The notes under the pieces: generated by a model | What the model saw: only the letters and a program-made list of their open reading frames with translations | What the model was told of the DNA's origin: nothing | Database searches by the model: none | Made by a program: the position numbers and the translations under genes | Shown: positions 46,403 through 55,439 of the stretch, piece after piece | How positions within the stretch are numbered: position 1 is the first letter of the stretch | Layout: every line of letters begins with the position of its first letter | Assembly (NCBI GenBank): GCA_965248925.1 | Contig: CBDFLE010000006.1 | Coordinates: 2,560,001 to 2,624,000, forward strand | DNA length: 64,000 nucleotides | From: Candidatus Multivoradales bacterium | Lineage (GTDB): Bacteria > Acidobacteriota > Thermoanaerobaculia > Multivoradales > J023 | Direction: 5' to 3'

Positions 46403-47167
46403 TCACCTTGCCTCTCGCTGGGCGGCCTTGCGAATACCGCCGGCTCTCTTCGCCCGCATGGAGTCACCGTCCACCGCGAGCTTGTAGGCGCCGTGGACAA
46501 TGCGATCGAGGATGGCGTCGGCCAAGGTCGGATCGCCGATGACCTCGTACCAGCTCTCAACCGGTAGCTGGGAGGTCACCAGCGTGGAGCGGTTGCCGTA
46601 GCGGTCCTCAAGAATCTCGAGCAGGTCGCGCCGCTCGCTGGCCCCGATCGGCGCCAGCCCCCAGTCGTCGAGGATGAGCAGGTCTGTGCGAGCATAGCTC
46701 TTGAGCAGCTTCTCGTAGCTACCATCACCCCGCGCGATGGCGAGCTGGCGAAACAGCCTCGGCACCCGCAGGTACAAAGCGGTGTAACCCTCCCGACATG
46801 CCTTGTGCGCGAAGGCGCAGGCGAGAAAGGTCTTGCCCACCCCGGCCTTGCCGGTGATCAGCACGTTGAGATGCTCGGCGATCCACTGGCACGAGGCCAG
46901 GCGCAGGATCTGGCCTTTGTCCAGGCCCCTCTTGGCTCGCCAGTCGATGTCTTCGATGGCCGCCTGCTCGCGCAGCTTGGCTTTTCGCAACCGCGCTATC
47001 AAGCGGCGGCTGGATCGCTCGGTCGCTTCGCGCTCGACCAGCAGCCCGAGGCGCTCTTCGAAGGAGAGCTCTGAGACATCGACCATCGACAGCTGCTCCT
47101 CAAAGGCTTTGGCCATACCGTGGAGCTTGAGCGCGGCGAGTTGATCGAGCGTCGCGTGCCTCAGCAT
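46403..47167 (-). CDS. istB: IS21 helper ATPase IstB
   Basis: GKAGVGKT, LILDDWG, TSQLP, ADAILDR; ATGCTGA coupling with istA. Confidence 0.95.
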   Translation of the reverse strand: MLRHATLDQLAALKLHGMAKAFEEQLSMVDVSELSFEERLGLLVEREATERSSRRLIARLRKAKLREQAAIEDIDWRAKRGLDKGQILRLASCQWIAEHLNVLITGKAGVGKTFLACAFAHKACREGYTALYLRVPRLFRQLAIARGDGSYEKLLKSYARTDLLILDDWGLAPIGASERRDLLEILEDRYGNRSTLVTSQLPVESWYEVIGDPTLADAILDRIVHGAYKLAVDGDSMRAKRAGGIRKAAQREAR

Positions 47168-48735
47168 GGCGGCGTCTCCTCGCGGCGCGCGGCACTGTAG
47201 TAGCTGGCGCCGCGGACGTTGCGGTGCTCGATCGGCGCCGTCACTTCGGTGGGCTCGGGCGCTGCTTGCTGGTCCAGGCCGCTCTTCAGGATCGACTTCA
47301 CGCTCTTGTAGGACAGGCCGTGAATGGCGAGCGCGCGGCGGCACGCAGCCTCCAAACGATTGGCACCATAGGTCTTGCCCAGGCGCATCAGCCCCAGACA
47401 CGAGCGAAAGCCGTGCTGAGGATGGGAGCGGTTAAGCATGATGGTCTCCACCAGTTCGGCCGTCGCCTGGCCTGTTTTCGCCGCCCAGCTGATCAGCCGT
47501 GTCGGTGTCCACTCCAGGTACGCCTGGTGCGCTTTGGGCATGTGCTCGCTCTGGGTCGTGTGCCGACCCCGACACCGATTGCGACGATGAGCAGCCACAC
47601 GCTTGCCGCGATCGAGCACCTCCACCATGTGCGCCGTCGCCCGCAGATCGAGCTGCTTCTTGATCAGCTGGTACGGCACACTGTAATAGTGGCCCTCGAA
47701 CTCGACGTGGTAGTCCGGGGCAACGCGTACCTTCTTCCATTCGGCAAGCTCGTAGGGCTGGAGCGGCAAAGCACCCAGAGCAGGACGATCGACCTGCTCG
47801 AACAGCGCTCGGCGCGAGACGCCCAACACCTTCAGCGGACGGTCGTTAAGCTCGACCAGAAGCTTCGCGATGCTCTCGTTGAGCTCTCGCAGGCTGAAGA
47901 ACTGCTGGTTACGCAGCCGGGCCAGAATCCAGCGCTCCACTTGCAATACACCATTTTCGACCTTCGCCTTGTCTTGGGGCTTCCTCACCCGCGCCGGCAC
48001 CACCGCCACGCCGTAGTGCTCGGCCAACTCCGCGTAGGTGCGATTGATCTCCGGCTCGTAGCGGCACGGGCTGGTCACGCCGCTCTTCAGATTGTCCGGC
48101 ACCACCAGCTCGCTCACCCCGCCCAGAGCCGCGAAGGTCCGCACATGAGAGCCGATCCAGTCCTCCAGGCCCTGGCTCCACGTTGCTTCGGCATAGGTGT
48201 AATTGCTCGCCCCCAGCACCGCCACGAAGATCTGCGCTTCGCGCGCTTTGCCAGTCGCCGGGTCGATCACCCTCACGGTCTGTCCGGCGTAGTCGACGAA
48301 CAGCTTCTCGCCCGCCCGGTAGGCTTGGCGCAGGCACACATCCAGGCGCCCTTCCCAGATCCGGTACAGCTGACAGAAGCGGCTGAGACCGTAGCCGTCA
48401 GGATGGTCCTCCCGGTACTCCTGCCACAGCAGCGACAGGGTTACGCACTTCTTCTTCAGCTCGCCATGCACCTTGGTCCAGTCGGGCAAGGCTCGCTGAC
48501 CACCCCTCCGAAGCGGCTGCGGCCGAGGGTACAGGCGTTGCTCCAGCTCAGCGTCGCTCAAAGCTGCTACTTGCTCCCAGCTCAGGCCTTCAACCTTGGC
48601 TCGCAGCAGGTAGTTGCACACCGTCCCGTGGCCCAGCCGAACCGACCGTCCGATCTGGCGGTGCGACAGGCCATGCTGCCATTTCAGTCTCAGTACCTCG
48701 CGTATCTTGCGCATCGATGTCCTCACTCTCGGCAT
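47161..48735 (-). CDS. istA: IS21 DDE transposase IstA
   Basis: HTH, FVDYAG, VPDNLKS, KPQDKAKVE. Confidence 0.95.
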   Translation of the reverse strand: MPRVRTSMRKIREVLRLKWQHGLSHRQIGRSVRLGHGTVCNYLLRAKVEGLSWEQVAALSDAELEQRLYPRPQPLRRGGQRALPDWTKVHGELKKKCVTLSLLWQEYREDHPDGYGLSRFCQLYRIWEGRLDVCLRQAYRAGEKLFVDYAGQTVRVIDPATGKAREAQIFVAVLGASNYTYAEATWSQGLEDWIGSHVRTFAALGGVSELVVPDNLKSGVTSPCRYEPEINRTYAELAEHYGVAVVPARVRKPQDKAKVENGVLQVERWILARLRNQQFFSLRELNESIAKLLVELNDRPLKVLGVSRRALFEQVDRPALGALPLQPYELAEWKKVRVAPDYHVEFEGHYYSVPYQLIKKQLDLRATAHMVEVLDRGKRVAAHRRNRCRGRHTTQSEHMPKAHQAYLEWTPTRLISWAAKTGQATAELVETIMLNRSHPQHGFRSCLGLMRLGKTYGANRLEAACRRALAIHGLSYKSVKSILKSGLDQQAAPEPTEVTAPIEHRNVRGASYYSAARREETPPC

Positions 48736-49158: not shown

Positions 49159-49632
49159 CTAGTAACTCCGAGAATACTCGATCCTCAAATCGAAGTTCTG
49201 ATGCCCGATGCTTATTTTCAGATCCAAGAAGAGAGCGTCTCCCAAGACAAGATCTGCCTGAGACCCAAGATCGAAGGCTAAATTAATCCGTCCTTTTGCA
49301 CCTGCTTCGATGAGCGAAAACTCGTCGCCTTCTGACTTATAGACCCGCTCGCCTACCGCAAGAGTAGCTGAGCTAACAGAAAAAGCTCGGCCCGACAAAT
49401 TGGTCACTAAAAACTCGGGGCCGAACCATTCACTTCCGAGGAGCCCACCGGAACCGAGGCTGACGAACTTAACACCCCGCCACGAGAGAGTTCGCCTGAA
49501 CTCCGACTCAGCCTCCCACCCGACAGGGTCGTATCTAAGGCCTGGGTCACAGGCGACAAAGGTCACCAGAAATACTACCAGAGATGCCAAGTTCAACCCC
49601 GGCACAGGTCTTACGCTAGAGAATTTGCACAC
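49159..49632 (-). CDS. Putative immunity lipoprotein
   Basis: Lipobox LVTFVAC; overlaps the end of the upstream toxin tip; low GC. Confidence 0.6.
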   Translation of the reverse strand: MCKFSSVRPVPGLNLASLVVFLVTFVACDPGLRYDPVGWEAESEFRRTLSWRGVKFVSLGSGGLLGSEWFGPEFLVTNLSGRAFSVSSATLAVGERVYKSEGDEFSLIEAGAKGRINLAFDLGSQADLVLGDALFLDLKISIGHQNFDLRIEYSRSY

Positions 49633-49990
49633 AGTAAACTTTCCCTTCAATAAACTGATAACCCTCTCGCAATTGACACTCAGAAAGGGCTTCTCGGATC
49701 GCATCTCTGACGGACTCAGTGTCTGATTCATTCAGCTCCTCTCCCTCTTGAATGTTATTCAAGATGCCTGGGTTGTCGGCAAGAAATGAGTTGACGGCGT
49801 CCTGAAAATCACTAGCCCGGCGCTCGAATGATATGGCCTCATACGCCTCTTTCTTACTGGCTCCTTCCTTACGGTTCTTCCGATACTCACTCAGGTACTT
49901 CCTGGCGAATCCAAGTTTCCCAAGCTTCTGGTACTGCCCGACATGGATCAACTCGTGGCCAATCAACGCCACGCTCCCTGGACGATAAGC
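49616..49990 (-). pseudogene. Orphan toxin tip fragment, HExxH zincin (DUF4157-like)
   Basis: ALIGHELIHVGQYQKLG..F...YL...AY.AISFERRA; no credible start; begins just after the REP-like repeat. Confidence 0.6.
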
Positions 49991-50004
49991 CCAGAAGCAC
50001 CAAA

Positions 50005-50044
50005 GCCCGGCCGAAACCGGGCTGCTACGAATCGATTGGCACCT
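50005..50044 (-). repeat. REP-like repeat, second full copy
   Basis: GCCCGGCCGAAACCGGGCTGCTACGAATCGATTGGCACCT; 37/40 identical to the 48996 copy. Confidence 0.85.
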
Positions 50045-50080
50045 CTTCAGCTTTGTACTCACTGCAAGTTGAAGAGAATC

Positions 50081-50449
50081 TCATTTTCTAGGAGAGCCAA
50101 TTTTCCGGCGCCCTAGAGAATACGCCACCAAGCATCCTATGAGGAAATACTTAACTCCACCGAGAAAAATTACAACAAACATTTCTCCTAAGAATGCTGC
50201 GTGGGTGGAATCGCGAAACAGATTCGCCACCGGGCCGATAGTCCGCATTTGAAAACCGTGAGAGTTAAGAAATTGTCCAACCGGAAAATGAAAAATTCGC
50301 TCTATTCTCGCCACGTCAGCGCCGAAAGATCCCCAATATTGAACTCGAAGACACATAAGAATGGGCACAAGGCTTGCGTGGGCCAAGAAAAAGACCATTC
50401 CCCAAGTGACTATCTTTTTCGCAGAATTAATCACCAGGATTTCCACCAT
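50081..50449 (-). CDS. Putative membrane immunity protein for the Rhs C-terminal domain
   Basis: Two TM helices; overlaps the Rhs stop; AT-rich. Confidence 0.6.
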   Translation of the reverse strand: MVEILVINSAKKIVTWGMVFFLAHASLVPILMCLRVQYWGSFGADVARIERIFHFPVGQFLNSHGFQMRTIGPVANLFRDSTHAAFLGEMFVVIFLGGVKYFLIGCLVAYSLGRRKIGSPRK

Positions 50450-52360
50450 CTGTTGGACCCCCCACTGGGCGGGCTCAGTCTGACCGAGCGGAGTCCTCGC
50501 TGTGCACTCTTGAGATCCTGGCTATGGATTGGAATAGGGCCGTTTACAAAAGCACTTCGCGTCCGTGGATCAGCCCAGGCAAGCGAGTCGGCTACCGTTC
50601 CGTAGCGCTCACTGACCTCCGGAACAACACCTTGTCTACGGTTCAGACTAAAAGTCGTCAGGTCTCCTCTCGGGTACGGACTCAAAGCAAACTGATGTGC
50701 GAAGACTTCATGGTTGATGGCATTGGCAACTGCTTGAGCTGACTGTTTCTTGGTCAGCCCAAAGCCAGAAATAAACTGCCCAGCCTTAACGAGCGTACTG
50801 CTCGCGTTGCCAGAATCCCCGTTGACAAGGATCTTGCCGACTCCCTTGTTGAACAGTGCCACGTTTGTTTCGTTGAGTTCCGCTGAATCAAAGACATAAA
50901 CATCGCCGACGTCAAGCCCCTCCCAGAATTCACGTACGTTCTCAATGATCTCTTGCTTAAATTCATCACTCAGATTCAAATCTGCATCAAAGACAATCTG
51001 TATCGAAACATCCTTGCCGGACGGATCCGAGAATGCCATGGGATTGTTGAGAGCATAGTTATATCGGTTCCAAGTCTGGGGCTTGGTCATTGCTCGGCGG
51101 AGCTGAAGCACCGGATCTATACTCAAGAACCGCCCCACCACCGGACTACAGTGCCGAGCATGCATGTAGTCCAGCTCGCTCTTCGCCCCCGCCCCGTTCT
51201 GATCCCGCTCATGCCCAGTAAACTTCAGCTGAAACTCATCCGAGCTAGAGGTGGTCGCTTCCTGCCCAAACGGATAGTAGCTGTGCAGCGCCACCTGGCT
51301 GCCGCTCTTCGTCACTTGTCGCGGCGTGCCGAGATGATCCAGATGAAAGCTGTAAATCCCCTCCACTCCGTTGGTATCAGGATCAACCGAGGCCAATAGC
51401 AGCCCACCCCGATAGACGTAGTCCCGTTTCCACTCGAAGCTCTCCCCACGTGGATGACTGAAGACCCGCAGCACCTCGTTGCGCATCCCGCGCAGGGTCC
51501 AAGTCTCGCTGGCCGGGCTGCTTACGCAGCTGCTGCCGGCGGCGCTGAAGCAGCTGAAGGTGACGATGCGCTCGTCGTCCGCGTTGTAGATGTACACGCT
51601 CGCCTGGTCAGTGTTGGATTGCAGGTGCTTCATCATGTTGGCGGCGTCGTAGGTGTACTCATAGATCTCCGAGCTACTGTAACGCACGCGGGTCAGGTTG
51701 CCGCCAGCGTCATAGGTGGTGCCGCTGAGACCGAGGCGGTTGGTGGAAGAGTTCGGGCTCATGGTCTGGCTGGCGCCGTGGGTGATCATCTGGGTGATGT
51801 TGCCGAAATTGTCATAGCTCGCGGTCTGTAGGCGGTCGTTGCTGCCGACTTTTACCTCGCCGCTGACCAGGCGCTGGAATCGGTCGTAGCGATATTGCAA
51901 GGAGCCGATGCGGTGGATATTTCCGGCTCCGTCGTAGTCGAAGGTGCCGGTGTCCCAGCCGGCGTTGGTAGAGATGCGCTCGGGCCGGGCGAGGCCGGAG
52001 GGATCGACCTGGTAGGTTTCGGTGATGCCGCTCTGGTGGCTGATCTGGGTCAGCATGCCGCCGCTCTGGTAGCTGAGGCTGGAGGCGAAGCCGGGGACCG
52101 CGGTGAGGAAGCCCTTGTCGTAGGCGTAACTCACCTGCCGCGGCGGGCTGACCTGGTCGCAGCTGTCGTTGCTGTGCAGGCAGTCAGGATAGTCGAGAGT
52201 CGCGAGGTTGCCTTGCAGATCGAAGGTGAAGCCGGCCTGGAAGGCGTAGTGGCCGACGCCGAGCTGGTAGCGGGTCTGGCGCTCGGACATCCGCCCACCG
52301 CGGCCAGCGTAGACGAAGCTCTCGGAGATCCGGACATCGAGAAAGCCAGGATTGGCGACG
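50431..52360 (-). pseudogene. 5'-truncated Rhs protein (YD repeats, Rhs core, C-terminal toxin)
   Basis: YD repeats, HLDHLGTPR, YYPFG, KFTGHERD, GRFLSIDP, NNPMAFSDPSG; frame continues upstream of the ATG (FLDVRISESFVYAGRGGR) and then loses similarity near 52360. Confidence 0.85.
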
Positions 52361-52367
52361 GAAGCGG

Positions 52368-52622
52368 TTGGACGCGGACAAGAAAGAGGCGTCCGAGGCT
52401 TGGATAGCCGAGATTTCGGAGCGCTGGCGCAACGGCGAGAGTGTCAGCGAGCTTCAGGAGCTTCTTGGCTATCGCGATCCGAGAAGTGTCTACGGAAGAA
52501 TTCGCCGGCTCCGAATCAAGTACGGAATAGAAAAGTTTCCTCGGCGACGCAGCGGGGCGCGGCCAGCAAAGGCTGCCCAGAGACTGTCTCTGGGCAGCCA
52601 CGGGCCTGATTACAGCCCCTAG
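52368..52622 (+). CDS. HTH-like small protein or 3' gene fragment
   Basis: WRNGESVSELQELLGYRDPRSVYGRIRRL. Confidence 0.4.
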   Translation: MDADKKEASEAWIAEISERWRNGESVSELQELLGYRDPRSVYGRIRRLRIKYGIEKFPRRRSGARPAKAAQRLSLGSHGPDYSP

Positions 52623-53932
52623 CGGGACTCGAAGAACACGTCGAGCCAGATACCGCACTTGCCCGGCAGCTCGAGACACGACGCATCCGACTCAGCCGGG
52701 AAGGTGTTCCCGCAGCGGTCGGCCTTGTCGGTCTCGCGAACGTTGCTCAGCGCCTCGATTCGAAGCTCGCTGAAAGGCACCAGCTCCTTGAGTTCGATTC
52801 GGCCATCAGCATCGCGGTCAGCCCAGACCTGAAGCGTCGCACCACAGTTCTGGAACTTGACCTCCGACAGGCCGTCGATCGGCATCCCGCAGTGAGCGGC
52901 CAGTGCTTCGAAGCCGTGCGCGTAGGGGAATTCCCCGAGCGGCCCCTGGGTGACGTTCCCGAAGAGGTGACGCCACGGCTCCACCTCGACTTCCTTTCCA
53001 GATTGGATCGCCCTATAGTCCCCTGGGCTCAGCTTCGTCACGAAAACGATCTTCGTTCCTGGCTCAGTCCAAGCGGTACAGGTCGTTTGACCGTCACCTT
53101 TCCAGTCCAGGCAGACGGTGGGCGTCTCGCTCGAACAGAATCCCCGCTTCCACCAATCCTGCGCAGCTCCAGTTGGCGTGTAGTAGTCGGGCAGGTAGAG
53201 CACGAGAGGTGAGTTCGTGAGAAGGCACTGGCAGTTTCTACACTCCCAGGTTGCGAATGGTGGCGAGAGCCCGCAGTGGACAGCAGAGAAACACTGGCAC
53301 TGCGGCGGCTCTTGGCCCCCACCACCGTTCTCACTCACAGTCTTGTTGATCTCCCTCGCCCGCTTACACTCAGCCGACTTGACCGCCCTCGGACTGTATA
53401 CACCATTGTCGTACTGACGGTTCTGCATCGCATAGCCTGTGCGGTTGGCAGAGGGGTGCCCGAGTCCTATTGTGTGCCCTAGTTCGTGAGCGACCGTGTC
53501 GGCGAAGGTTGAGTCTATACAGCTAACAACCCTCCCAGGCACCCCAGGCGTCGCAGGGATCTCCGACTTACTGTACAGGAATATCTTGCGCCGACTAGGG
53601 CTGTAAAAGGCGCAGGAGTTTTGGTTCATCGGATTAAAGCCAGGATGCAACGTGACAGTAACGTCCCTGAAGCTAGTTCCAGGGGGCGGCGGAACGAGGT
53701 CAAAGATCGGAAACGACGTGCCGCCTATGTTGCAGCCACCGTTATTCCAGCTGGCCATTCCATCTAGGAACCGGTCCAGCAGACCGCCATGAATTCCTTG
53801 CGGGACAAGCCGGGTGACATCGGGTATGTTGTTACCCGGATGGCCCGAAAGGTTTGTTACGCAGGCAGCCTCCACCGGGCCGACGATCCAGAGAAGTGAG
53901 AGGAGGGTCGGCAACATTGTTTTGAAAAGCAT
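52619..53932 (-). CDS. Secreted metzincin protease with Cys-rich linker and FrpC self-processing-module-like domain
   Basis: Signal peptide; HELGHTIGLGH plus Met-turn (YAMQ); NSPLVL...LFGNVT...HGFEALA...LQVWADRDADG...EL. Confidence 0.75.
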   Translation of the reverse strand: MLFKTMLPTLLSLLWIVGPVEAACVTNLSGHPGNNIPDVTRLVPQGIHGGLLDRFLDGMASWNNGGCNIGGTSFPIFDLVPPPPGTSFRDVTVTLHPGFNPMNQNSCAFYSPSRRKIFLYSKSEIPATPGVPGRVVSCIDSTFADTVAHELGHTIGLGHPSANRTGYAMQNRQYDNGVYSPRAVKSAECKRAREINKTVSENGGGGQEPPQCQCFSAVHCGLSPPFATWECRNCQCLLTNSPLVLYLPDYYTPTGAAQDWWKRGFCSSETPTVCLDWKGDGQTTCTAWTEPGTKIVFVTKLSPGDYRAIQSGKEVEVEPWRHLFGNVTQGPLGEFPYAHGFEALAAHCGMPIDGLSEVKFQNCGATLQVWADRDADGRIELKELVPFSELRIEALSNVRETDKADRCGNTFPAESDASCLELPGKCGIWLDVFFESR

Positions 53933-53933
53933 T

Positions 53934-55439
53934 TCAGCGCTCCTCGGCTTTGGTTGCGCTGAGTGCCAAGTCGAGGAGCGCCGCCCTGTCCCTGACACGT
54001 CCTTCCTTCTTTGCTTCGGGGTATTCTGCGTACTGACTCGTTCTCCGAATATGGTCGCTGGTAGAGATGATCACAAGGCTGTGGGCGGTCTCTAGGCGAA
54101 TGAACGGGTCGTCCGGGCTCCACTCGTACTGGTCGGGAACCATAACCAGCACTTCCTCGCCGGGGGCGGGGGGACTCGGGTAGCGGCTGTCGCTCTTGCA
54201 GAACTTGTATGGCCCTGCTTCGAACTCGCCTACCGGAATGAAGAAGTAGTACGAGTCGAGCGTCAAAGGGCCGCCCTTGAAAGTCCTCGTTGGCCTGAAG
54301 CGCACCAACTGGCCTGGTTGATCCTTGAAGAATCCGAAGGCACTCCTCTCAACTTCGCCCAGTATCACCGCAGTCGAGCCCTTTGCGGCTCCGGAGATAC
54401 TCACCCGGTCTGGGCGTTCGTGCTGGTCGTCAACGAGCCCGCCAGTTACGAGGCAGCCGCTGTCATCGTAAAGCTGGTGATCTCCGAGTTGTTCTCGTAG
54501 AAACTCGCGAGCCCAGGGCGCGAGCGCTCCGTCCAAGAATTCGCCGTTGGCGTCGAAGACTTGGTCGGCGCGCTGCCAGATCCAGCGGTGCGGAAGCGGC
54601 TTCGCCATTTCCAGACGGACCGGGTGGGGCTCACTGCTCTTGGCTTCCCTCCGACCTTCAGTTGGAGTTAGAGCGCTCACGGCCTGGCTGATGGCCGTGA
54701 CCAATGTAGTGCGATTCGGAATATGTGCCCAATACTCCTTGGCTCGGGCGTGGAGAGGCGTATTGGCCGGAGGGTCGTCCTCTCGAACGAGGGCCAGGCT
54801 CTGGCCGTCTCGCAGGCTAATGAATGGGTCGTCCGGTGAACGAAGCCGACTCTTGCGCGGCATGACCAGCAGCTCGTCGCCGACCTTGTACGGCGCCTCG
54901 TGGTTCCGGAAGGTCACGGACTCCTTTTTGCAAATCTCGATGGAGCCTGCCCTGAAGCTCCCCACAGGAACGAACACGTAGTATTTTGTGAGCCTTACGT
55001 CCCCTTGGAAGACCTGCTCAGGTGCAATCTGGATCAGCTGGCCGGGCTCTCTGAACCCGAATCCGTAGGCCACGCCTGTCACTCGGCCCAAGAAAACCAT
55101 CTCGGCCGACTCGACGGCCTCGGCAATAGTCGCCCGATCGGCCGGCAGGTCCCACGAACCGCTCTGGACCATCTCTACGCAGCCCTCGCCCTTCGCGGCC
55201 GGGCTCTCAGCTACGGTTTGATCGTAGTAGGCCCGTATGGCGGGGTGGATCAACTCAGAATCGAAGCGGCCCTCGCCGTTAACGGCCCGGTTAGCCGCAA
55301 CCCAGACCGGCCAGCTCGAGCCAGGCCCCTGGCTGTAAAGGACCTCCGGCATCCCGTCAGCAACAATCGGGGCCGCCATCAAGACGCCGCACAGGGCAAG
55401 CCCCGCCGTCAATCCGGTCAAAAGACAAAAAGTTCGCAT
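53934..55439 (-). CDS. Secreted protein with two tandem homologous domains (TIMP/NTR-like OB fold suspected)
   Basis: Signal peptide; internal duplication (VFLGRV/VILGEV, PGQL, YYxFxPVGxFxAG, SPDDPFI twice). Confidence 0.7.
   Translation of the reverse strand: MRTFCLLTGLTAGLALCGVLMAAPIVADGMPEVLYSQGPGSSWPVWVAANRAVNGEGRFDSELIHPAIRAYYDQTVAESPAAKGEGCVEMVQSGSWDLPADRATIAEAVESAEMVFLGRVTGVAYGFGFREPGQLIQIAPEQVFQGDVRLTKYYVFVPVGSFRAGSIEICKKESVTFRNHEAPYKVGDELLVMPRKSRLRSPDDPFISLRDGQSLALVREDDPPANTPLHARAKEYWAHIPNRTTLVTAISQAVSALTPTEGRREAKSSEPHPVRLEMAKPLPHRWIWQRADQVFDANGEFLDGALAPWAREFLREQLGDHQLYDDSGCLVTGGLVDDQHERPDRVSISGAAKGSTAVILGEVERSAFGFFKDQPGQLVRFRPTRTFKGGPLTLDSYYFFIPVGEFEAGPYKFCKSDSRYPSPPAPGEEVLVMVPDQYEWSPDDPFIRLETAHSLVIISTSDHIRRTSQYAEYPEAKKEGRVRDRAALLDLALSATKAEER

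Follow-up and report, generated by a model that had tools for sequence, protein, structure and literature searches.

The closest described relative of the domain studied here is the SPM (self-processing module) found in the Neisseria protein FrpC. In FrpC, Ca2+ induces cleavage of the module's own Asp-Pro bond and Asp-Lys cross-linking of the freed fragment. Residue roles are taken from Kuban et al. 2020 (PMC7078468). According to that structural work, the SPM fold consists of two perpendicular β-sheets and a helix-turn-helix, with the N- and C-terminal strands paired, and it carries a T-shaped tryptophan pair (W451/W519) and four EF-hand-like Ca2+ sites (D419-G424 with D456, D462-E474, D499-D511 and D521-E532). 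Folding strains the D414-P415 turn, and the Asp carboxylate attacks its own carbonyl to form an anhydride. D478 and D579 lie beside the module N-terminus and the cleavage site, where they form a transient fifth Ca2+ site together with D414; FrpC variants D478N and D579N still cleave, D579A does not (PMC7078468). D414A abolishes cleavage (PMC7846742) and P415A also blocks it (PMC7078468, PMC7846742). Here we analyse a window of 64,000 nucleotides (the whole stretch of DNA considered) from a Candidatus Multivoradales bacterium (contig CBDFLE010000006.1, positions 2,560,001 to 2,624,000), in which one gene encodes a 437-residue protein, P0001, that joins a predicted zinc protease of the metzincin type to a homologue of the FrpC module.

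The same structural paper calls the SPM exclusive to RTX (repeats-in-toxin) proteins (PMC7078468). The Asp-Pro module is in use as the protein-ligation tool NeissLock. In their available text, the NeissLock papers treat Asp-Pro modules only, and the homologues tested in the one from 2025 were all from Neisseriaceae, with an identity of at least 60%. In our literature search, neither non-Asp junctions nor Sec-type proteins bearing an SPM nor a Cys-rich form were described, and PF26745, the Pfam family of the module, stood in no paper; among the best 15 of 338 papers listed, none linked the module to a Ser-Pro, Thr-Pro or Cys-Pro junction, to an acyl shift or to Acidobacteria. Other papers or supplementary alignments could hold such an account.

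An SPM-fold domain behind a Ser-Pro junction

From its N-terminus, P0001 consists of signal-peptide-like residues 1-22, a catalytic domain, a six-Cys linker, the triplet N240-S241-P242 and a 196-residue C-terminal domain with eight Cys. A sequence-only reading of this DNA had described a signal peptide, an intact zinc site with Met-turn, a six-Cys linker, an N-S-P junction and a FrpC-like C-terminal module that lacks Ca-binding loops and has gained eight Cys. All of these features were recovered in the analyses below, as were the C-terminal motifs it had listed, in the same order.

The C-terminal domain and the FrpC module are true homologues. When P0001 was searched against PDB sequences with phmmer, the FrpC SPM was the sole match ranked above the protease matches (E 0.036), and a profile of 45 homologues matched 6sjw with an E-value of 6.8e-9 over ~92 residues. 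The AlphaFold2 model of P0001 (from 45 homologues) has a mean predicted local distance difference test score (pLDDT) of 74, with both domains mostly at 84-96 and residues 1-34 below 50; within the SPM domain most values are 84-93, and the loops at 274-284 and 326-334 are weak. With this model, Foldseek ranked 6sjx and 6sjw first (E 8e-7 and 1e-6; target TM-score 0.58-0.63), and VIA-align superposed model residues 242-437 on FrpC SPM chain residues 1-175 (Z 13.2, root mean square deviation 3.9 Å, 160/179 residues). The likeness to FrpC holds at each of these levels. The precomputed Pfam annotation of P0001 also contains PF26745 (PF26745.1), which is named 'SPM' (Pfam 38.1) in the Atlas listing, with scores of 0.88-0.89, at the level of a lead. 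As Pfam 38.1 already files P0001 as an SPM, the domain assignment itself is not new.

The structural alignment also fixes the register of the junction. Model residue 242 falls on residue 1 of 6sjw, which is FrpC P415, and model residue 239 on residue -2 of the uncleaved precursor 6sjx; S241 thus stands at the place of D414. To describe its conservation, we distinguish a close family of 45 proteins including P0001 from a wider Cys-type subfamily of 48 members (47 in the column comparison below). In the close family, residue 241 is Ser in 44/45 and Thr in 1/45, P242 is present in 45/45, and residue 240 is variable (N 34, D 4, E 3, L 3, Q 1). All 48 subfamily members have an S/T-P junction, and this in spite of the loss of Ca2+ sites described next.

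Much of the FrpC core is kept around this junction. P0001 retains the LFG motif and W288/W370 (FrpC W451/W519), G325 (G477), G340 (G491) and D431 (D579). W288 and W370 are invariant in the close family, and the same columns hold Trp in all junction classes. The residue after LFG differs from FrpC, with N326 taking the place of D478 in 47/47 subfamily members.

The Ca2+ sites were compared by column among 251 domains of the Ca-type S/T/C-Pro class, 41 of the D/E-Pro class and 47 subfamily members, using a hidden Markov model (HMM) built from our alignment A2. Five ligand columns that are conserved at 0.9 or more in the other classes have been replaced in the Cys-type subfamily: FrpC D419 by H/Y (Y246 in P0001), D462 by L301, E474 by H322, D499 by C348 and D510 by T/Q. 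D456, conserved at 0.64-0.88 elsewhere, is V/I. Ligands are thus replaced at three of the four EF-hand-like sites, and the last site alone is kept. Its loop has D372 and G377 without exception and D376 and E383 in at least 90%, and position 374 is D or S within the subfamily.

Eight Cys have been gained. Residues 266, 274, 285, 348, 363, 407, 419 and 426 are each Cys in 45/45 of the close family, and 45/48 subfamily members have exactly eight Cys after the junction. The branch also has its own insertions, WW..GFC after strand 1 and ~10 residues before LFG. In the linker, the six Cys are C212, C214, C220, C231, C234 and C236, of which C214, C231 and C236 occur in 45/45 of the close family, C220 in 44/45 and C212 and C234 in 40/45. 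In the model the linker ends in a β-hairpin (strands 229-232 and 235-238), and it is found with every type of N-terminal cargo. Judged from the sequences, the peculiarity of the Cys-type subfamily is the exchange of Ca loops for Cys, together with a conserved Cys-knot linker. One protein with a C-P junction, P0062, is seemingly intermediate between the Ca- and Cys-types: its EF loops are partly lost, and it has a helix insertion before LFG and some Cys.

Junction residues and proposed chemistry across the superfamily

An exhaustive phmmer search with the domain gave 78 cluster representatives. The distant matches are proteins of 200-500 residues with a Ca-type SPM at the C-terminus and a junction that is mostly S-P, also T-P and C-P. 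Among 8000 candidates scored, profile A2 matched 2336 proteins at E ≤ 1e-5, and it matched 288 further proteins among those longer than 924 residues; nearly all of its matches are annotated with PF26745. Of 120 A2 matches listed, 50 are called 'hypothetical protein' by their source, and the few named by organism are mostly Acidobacteriota.

Junctions were tallied by HMM over 354 proteins, which yielded 364 domains in 353 proteins, 355 of them with both junction columns. The junction residue is S in 272, D in 40, T in 26, C in 10, E in 1, R in 2, K in 2, A in 1 and P in 1, and the following residue is Pro in 354/355. S/T/C-Pro is thus the commonest junction in the sampled SPM domains (308/355), although the S-P-rich queries used for sampling bias the class proportions. 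That a Ser/Thr/Cys-Pro class exists, and that it is large, is not in doubt. Among proteins with at least five GxGxD repeats, as in RTX proteins, junctions are S 74, D 35, C 4 and T 3; among those with fewer than five, S 197, T 23, C 6, D 5 and E 1, and the Cys-type clade as a whole falls into this second group. The tail after the domain has a median of 6 residues in the S-class versus 900 in the D-class. The residue after LFG is N in 215/271 S-class domains and D in 27/40 D-class domains, and a D579-like Asp is present in the S/T/C class wherever aligned. Large RTX proteins with S-P, C-P or T-P junctions carry source names including Pseudomonas, Snodgrassella, Stenotrophomonas, Halomonas/Vreelandella and Kluyvera (among P0243-P0353), and some proteins (P0242-P0245) pair one D-P copy with one S/T-P or A-P copy.

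The sequence-only reading had implied a singular repurposing of the module. This does not hold, given the 308/355 S/T/C-Pro junctions, their occurrence in RTX proteins too and the existing Pfam assignment.

Junction changes were counted by Fitch parsimony on a FastTree of 339 distinct domains (183 columns, junction column masked). The tree needs 46 changes, whereas 200 shuffles gave 75.6 on average and never fewer than 70. By type the changes are S>T 19, S>C 9, S>D 7, D>S 4, T>S 1, T>C 1 and T>E 1, with four more that end in the non-nucleophiles K, A, P and R. Hence 42/46 changes stay within S/T/C/D/E; as the tree is a quick one on 183 columns, these event counts are rough. Serine is generally replaced most readily by Ala, Asn, Gly or Thr. 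At the junction, Cys arises from Ser nine times, Ala once, and Asn and Gly never, and Asp-Ser exchange is recurrent (11 events) despite the two base changes it needs. Together with the residue after LFG, which follows the junction class, this pattern suggests a chemically active side chain, with Asp and Ser as two interchangeable solutions to one task.

What could Ser do at the D414 position? It is unable to form FrpC's cyclic anhydride, and as D414A abolishes FrpC cleavage, FrpC's own chemistry cannot operate in P0001. The sequence-only reading had offered either release or anchoring by different chemistry or a non-cleaving scaffold. With Ser at the D414 position this was the right frame, and the choice between the two is not one that sequence can settle.

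We favour, with a probability of roughly 45%, a model in which P0001 self-processes by an acyl shift at residue 240. The S241 Oγ would attack the carbonyl of residue 240 in an N-to-O acyl shift, assisted by the strained turn of the invariant Pro, with N326 (FrpC D478) serving as hydrogen-bond donor and D431 (FrpC D579) as base. The ester could then be hydrolysed, which would release the protease with its Cys-knot, or it could be attacked by an amine or hydroxyl, which would link the protease covalently. The scissile bond would lie one position upstream of that of FrpC, and the Cys-knot would thus be left on the protease. The SPM domain would fold only once exported to an oxidising compartment, so that disulfides may replace Ca2+ as the compartment signal, the role played by Ca2+ for FrpC, which is exported by a type I secretion system (T1SS). 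Acyl shifts of this kind, N-to-O or N-to-S, underlie autoprocessing in inteins and Hedgehog HINT domains, SEA domains, Nup98 and pyruvoyl enzymes, where Ser, Thr or Cys is the first residue of the downstream fragment, the preceding peptide is strained and a (thio)ester is produced.

Several points weigh against this model. The acyl-shift step is read from the residue pattern, and the supposed nearness of S241 to N326 and D431 is an analogy with the published FrpC structure. The literature search returned no cleavage experiment or read-out on an S/T/C-Pro SPM, and no conserved intein-type His or Thr-x-x-His was seen in the domains. The position before Ser shows no constraint (N 45, T 33, G 29, P 21 and others, of 266), so nothing marks the 240-241 bond as special. 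For FrpC, strain is described for the Asp-Pro bond and not for the bond preceding it (PMC7078468). A preceding S, T, D or E is reported to make cis-Pro or turns more stable (PMC12862571), an effect that could explain most of the junction pattern without catalysis. Finally, the tree is approximate, and kinship among the sampled domains inflates the counts.

Some of these points speak equally for a second explanation, which we regard as a serious possibility, though one that we would not bet on: the SPM fold does not cleave and instead serves as a stable, disulfide-stapled C-terminal scaffold that could, for example, bind a partner, hold the protein at the surface, direct its sorting or assist folding. 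Ser or Thr before Pro would then be a structural ST/Asx-Pro turn or a cis-Pro stabiliser at the start of strand 1, in keeping with the reported preference for S, T, D and E before Pro (PMC12862571), with the free choice of the residue before Ser, and with the loss of the anhydride route that the D414A variant demonstrates for FrpC (PMC7846742). The fold evidently tolerates non-nucleophiles, as R, K or A takes the junction position in a few copies (6/355 are not S/T/C/D/E), and a variable N-terminus joined to a constant C-terminal domain is typical of sorting and anchoring domains. However, Asn and Gln would do equally well in Asx-type turns or cis-Pro contacts and occur in 0/355 domains, whereas Cys, a poor turn former, occurs ten times in ten separate lineages and Ala only once. 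For a purely structural boundary it would also be unusual that a domain keeps its first two residues almost without exception in thousands of sequences.

Far less probable, in our view, is that the junction is stapled rather than cut, by an ester or thioester between S/T/C241 and the side-chain amide of N326, with D431 as catalyst. The arrangement would resemble cross-links in Gram-positive adhesins, namely the Thr-Gln ester and the Cys-Gln thioester, and S/T/C alternation is the pattern of such cross-links. The junction class co-varies with the residue after LFG, as the S- and D-class counts above indicate, and D478 and D579 adjoin the module N-terminus in FrpC (PMC7078468). But S or D replaces the required N in 50/271 S-class domains. 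Cleavage of the Ser-Pro bond itself, by Ser-hydroxyl-assisted twisted-amide hydrolysis or through a β-lactone, is the least probable of all: conservation of the 'narrow port' residues (W288, G325, G340 and D431) and of the invariant Pro suggests that a FrpC-like strained X-Pro geometry is kept, but chemistry disfavours turning an amide into a four-membered lactone, and the fifth, transient Ca2+ site (D414, D478, D579) is dismantled, with S and N replacing D414 and D478.

Extending the acyl-shift model beyond P0001, we tentatively suggest that S/T/C-Pro SPMs may be an unrecognised self-processing class and the majority of the superfamily, acting through a (thio)ester and not an anhydride to release or ligate N-terminal cargo, and that in the branch of P0001 the trigger may have moved from Ca2+ to disulfides formed after Sec export. 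That this extended proposal is correct is somewhat less probable than that it is not.

The protease, its upstream gene and related loci

The coordinates of the gene, its parts and its neighbours are collected in Table 1. That the P0001 frame is a chance open reading frame (ORF) or artefact is ruled out by 44 homologues, beyond the protein itself, at E ≤ 1e-66. Read by eye, and under a crude hydrophobicity rule that 42/48 subfamily members satisfy, its N-terminus, MLFKTMLPTLLSLLWIVGPVEA, resembles a signal peptide.

Table 1. Features of the P0001 locus and neighbouring genes (positions in the window).
Feature	Position	Strand	Basis or remark
Metzincin-SPM gene, 437 aa + stop (P0001)	52619..53932	-	uninterrupted frame of 437 codons
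Shine-Dalgarno-like GAGGAG	53940..53945	-	7 nt 5' of the protease ATG, within the 3' end of the upstream gene; sequence reading
Probable Sec signal peptide, residues 1-22, ending VEA/AC	53867..53932	-	sequence reading and crude hydrophobicity rule
Metzincin catalytic domain, snapalysin/MMP-like, residues ~23-200	53333..53866	-	VIA-align on predicted model
Zinc-binding motif HELGHTIGLGH, H149-H159	53456..53488	-	sequence reading
Met-turn methionine M169 (YAM)	53426..53428	-	unchanged in 15/15 aligned metzincin-SPM proteins
Cys-rich linker, residues 201-240, ending in β-hairpin before junction	53213..53332	-	sequence and model
Junction S241-P242, structural equivalent of FrpC D414-P415	53207..53212	-	VIA-align
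SPM-fold domain, residues 242-437, 8 invariant Cys	52622..53209	-	phmmer, profile, Foldseek, VIA-align
Retained EF-hand-like loop D372-x-D374-x-D376-G377-x5-E383 (FrpC D521-E532)	52784..52819	-	conserved columns in all classes
Upstream gene 'UP', 501 aa, signal peptide and two tandem ~250-aa TIMP/NTR-like domains	53934..55439	-	internal repeat; model of repeat 2
Orphan RHS C-terminal piece (RHS repeat, RHS-associated core, ~190-aa tail), lacking the N-terminal bulk	50431-52290	-	downstream of P0001
Small ORFs, one with HELIH motif	49159-50062		downstream of RHS piece
IS21-type pair (integrase-core/Mu-transposase-C protein and IstB-like ATPase)	46403-48735	-	beside RHS fragment

P0001 is predicted from its model and motifs to be a Sec-exported zinc metalloprotease of the snapalysin/matrix metalloproteinase (MMP) type. 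VIA-align places model residues 37-199 on snapalysin 1kuh with a Z-score of 13.1 (128/132 residues aligned), and karilysin and MMP catalytic domains match at Z 11-12. H149, E150 and H153 are unchanged in the 15 aligned metzincin-SPM proteins, and the third zinc ligand alternates between H and D among relatives, an alternation known from snapalysin-type enzymes. Scores against family models are low: the best Pfam match of the protease domain is Reprolysin_5 at 21.4 bits against a cut-off of 27, NCBIfam matches of P0001 lie far below the cut-offs with no specific MEROPS family assigned, and no pro-peptide of the cysteine-switch type was identified in the protein.

The same linker and module carry other N-terminal parts. 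Among the 48 subfamily members, the cargo is a HExxH protease in 11, a CxRHDxCW protein in 23 and something else in 14, so the module behaves as a portable unit. The commonest cargo (23/48, among P0005-P0039) is a Cys-rich domain with the CxRHDxCW motif, and P0068, whose junction is Glu-Pro in the column-based tally, has the motif CCDQHDRCY; both motifs are reminiscent of phospholipase A2 active-site motifs. Pfam searches with 18 other cargo proteins gave weak metzincin matches only and none for the CxRHDxCW cargo. Proteins P0235-P0239, which have ~1000-1300 residues and contain domains of the subtilisin (PF00082), PA14 and FN3 types, also end in an S/T-P SPM, so that other protease classes bear the module too.

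The sequence-only reading overlooked the gene UP directly upstream. Its TGA ends 1 nt before the protease ATG at 53932, which together with the Shine-Dalgarno-like GAGGAG makes it very probable that the two genes are co-transcribed and that their translation is coupled. Pfam and NCBIfam assign the UP protein to no family. The predicted model of UP repeat 2 has a pLDDT of 90, and its top Foldseek matches and the 50 VIA rows listed are almost all proteins with an NTR module (PCOLCE NTR, agrin NtA, TIMP-1/2/3, complement C3/C4/C5 C345C), although weak (E at least 1.1e-3, Z at most 7.6). Across 30 aligned UP domains two Cys are invariant (C75 and C160 of repeat 2), both internal and neither at the predicted mature N-terminus, so the zinc-chelating mechanism of TIMPs is not evident.

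The gene pair recurs elsewhere. Of 30 UP loci fetched (L020-L049), 20 are followed closely downstream, on the same strand, by an ORF that bears an SPM. In 13 of these that ORF encodes HExxH and begins no more than 4 nt from the UP stop; as four pairs of loci overlap, the pairing occurs at ~17 of 26 distinct places. Single-domain UP homologues, which in many related genomes lie directly upstream of metzincin-SPM genes, are multi-copy in such genomes, and there are also tandem arrays, for instance with four in a row in L037. The metzincin of Ca-type relatives can be aligned to that of P0001 over its whole length, so the Cys-type protein appears, at the level of sequence, to be derived from a Ca-type UP-metzincin-SPM cassette. 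Serralysins have periplasmic inhibitors. UP is probably a cognate binding partner, inhibitor or docking partner of the protease. A complex prediction for UP repeat 2 with the metzincin domain (score 0.01, mark 0.32) is uninformative on binding either way.

The host genome comprises 7.98 Mb in 6 contigs. The module matches at E ≤ 1e-3 in 20 of 61 related genomes, the host included, with close matches in only four (G000, G010, G012 and G045), and among named records close homologues occur in Thermoanaerobaculia bins, in one bin of Chloroflexia and in two that are unclassified. The Cys-type branch as a whole comes mostly from metagenome bins of Thermoanaerobaculia type. A paralogue lies 36 kb past the end of the window (L002; G000:C6:2647308-2650910), with a module 61% identical and a metzincin of a second type (HEIGHLLGLDH). 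It has one in-frame stop and has lost the equivalents of the otherwise invariant W261, G427 and L430, and is therefore probably a decaying copy. Within the window, the GC content drops to 0.55-0.58 over 48-52 kb, which together with the neighbouring IS21-type pair suggests a mobile or recently acquired patch.

Comparison with known systems

The SPM fold is far more widespread than its description as exclusive to RTX proteins allows. In the present samples Ser/Thr/Cys-Pro is its usual junction, and one branch has swapped Ca2+ loops for putative disulfides. If S/T/C-Pro modules self-process, they would bring a new ester/thioester ligation chemistry, would explain how thousands of small secreted proteins (in named records mostly of Acidobacteriota) are matured or anchored, and would offer natural, calcium-independent and genetically encoded 'clip-and-link' tags with a chemistry unlike that of NeissLock. 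If they do not, the SPM fold has a second, non-catalytic life.

Compared with snapalysin (M7) and karilysin/MMP (M10), the protease domain of P0001 has the HExxHxxGxxH/D motif, the Met-turn and the fold in common. Unlike them, it stays below Pfam gathering scores and is fused to an SPM-type module. A pair of metzincin and TIMP-like genes has been described in Listeria (PMC8235301), and the P0001 locus likewise places, as predicted from the genes, a secreted metzincin beside a secreted TIMP/NTR-like protein. In contrast to TIMP-like pairs, UP lacks a mature N-terminal Cys and its domain is tandem-duplicated in this window. FrpD is encoded immediately upstream of FrpC (PMC3034196), a parallel to UP in gene arrangement only.

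With acyl-shift modules (inteins/HINT, SEA, Nup98, pyruvoyl enzymes), the SPM class has in common the alternation of Ser, Thr and Cys. However, the fold of P0001 is unrelated, no shared motifs were found and its processing is putative.

With FrpC itself, the module of P0001 shares the fold, an N-terminal cargo, the invariant Pro at the start of strand 1, the Trp pair, LFG-x-T, HGF-ALA and the last EF-hand loop. It differs in having Ser for the anhydride-forming Asp, Asn at D478, three Ca2+ sites replaced and eight Cys. A six-Cys knot precedes the junction, and the module sits at the extreme C-terminus of a 437-residue protein with a probable N-terminal signal peptide, which has neither RTX repeats nor a T1SS signal.

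The Ca-type S/T/C-Pro SPMs, found in small secreted proteins and in many RTX proteins, have the junction class, the Asn after LFG, the last-strand Asp and the C-terminal position of P0001, and some also have a homologous metzincin and the same upstream UP gene. Unlike P0001, they keep all EF-hand-like ligands (D, D, E, D, D at 0.9 or more), have few or no Cys in the domain and lack the WW..GFC and 10-residue pre-LFG insertions.

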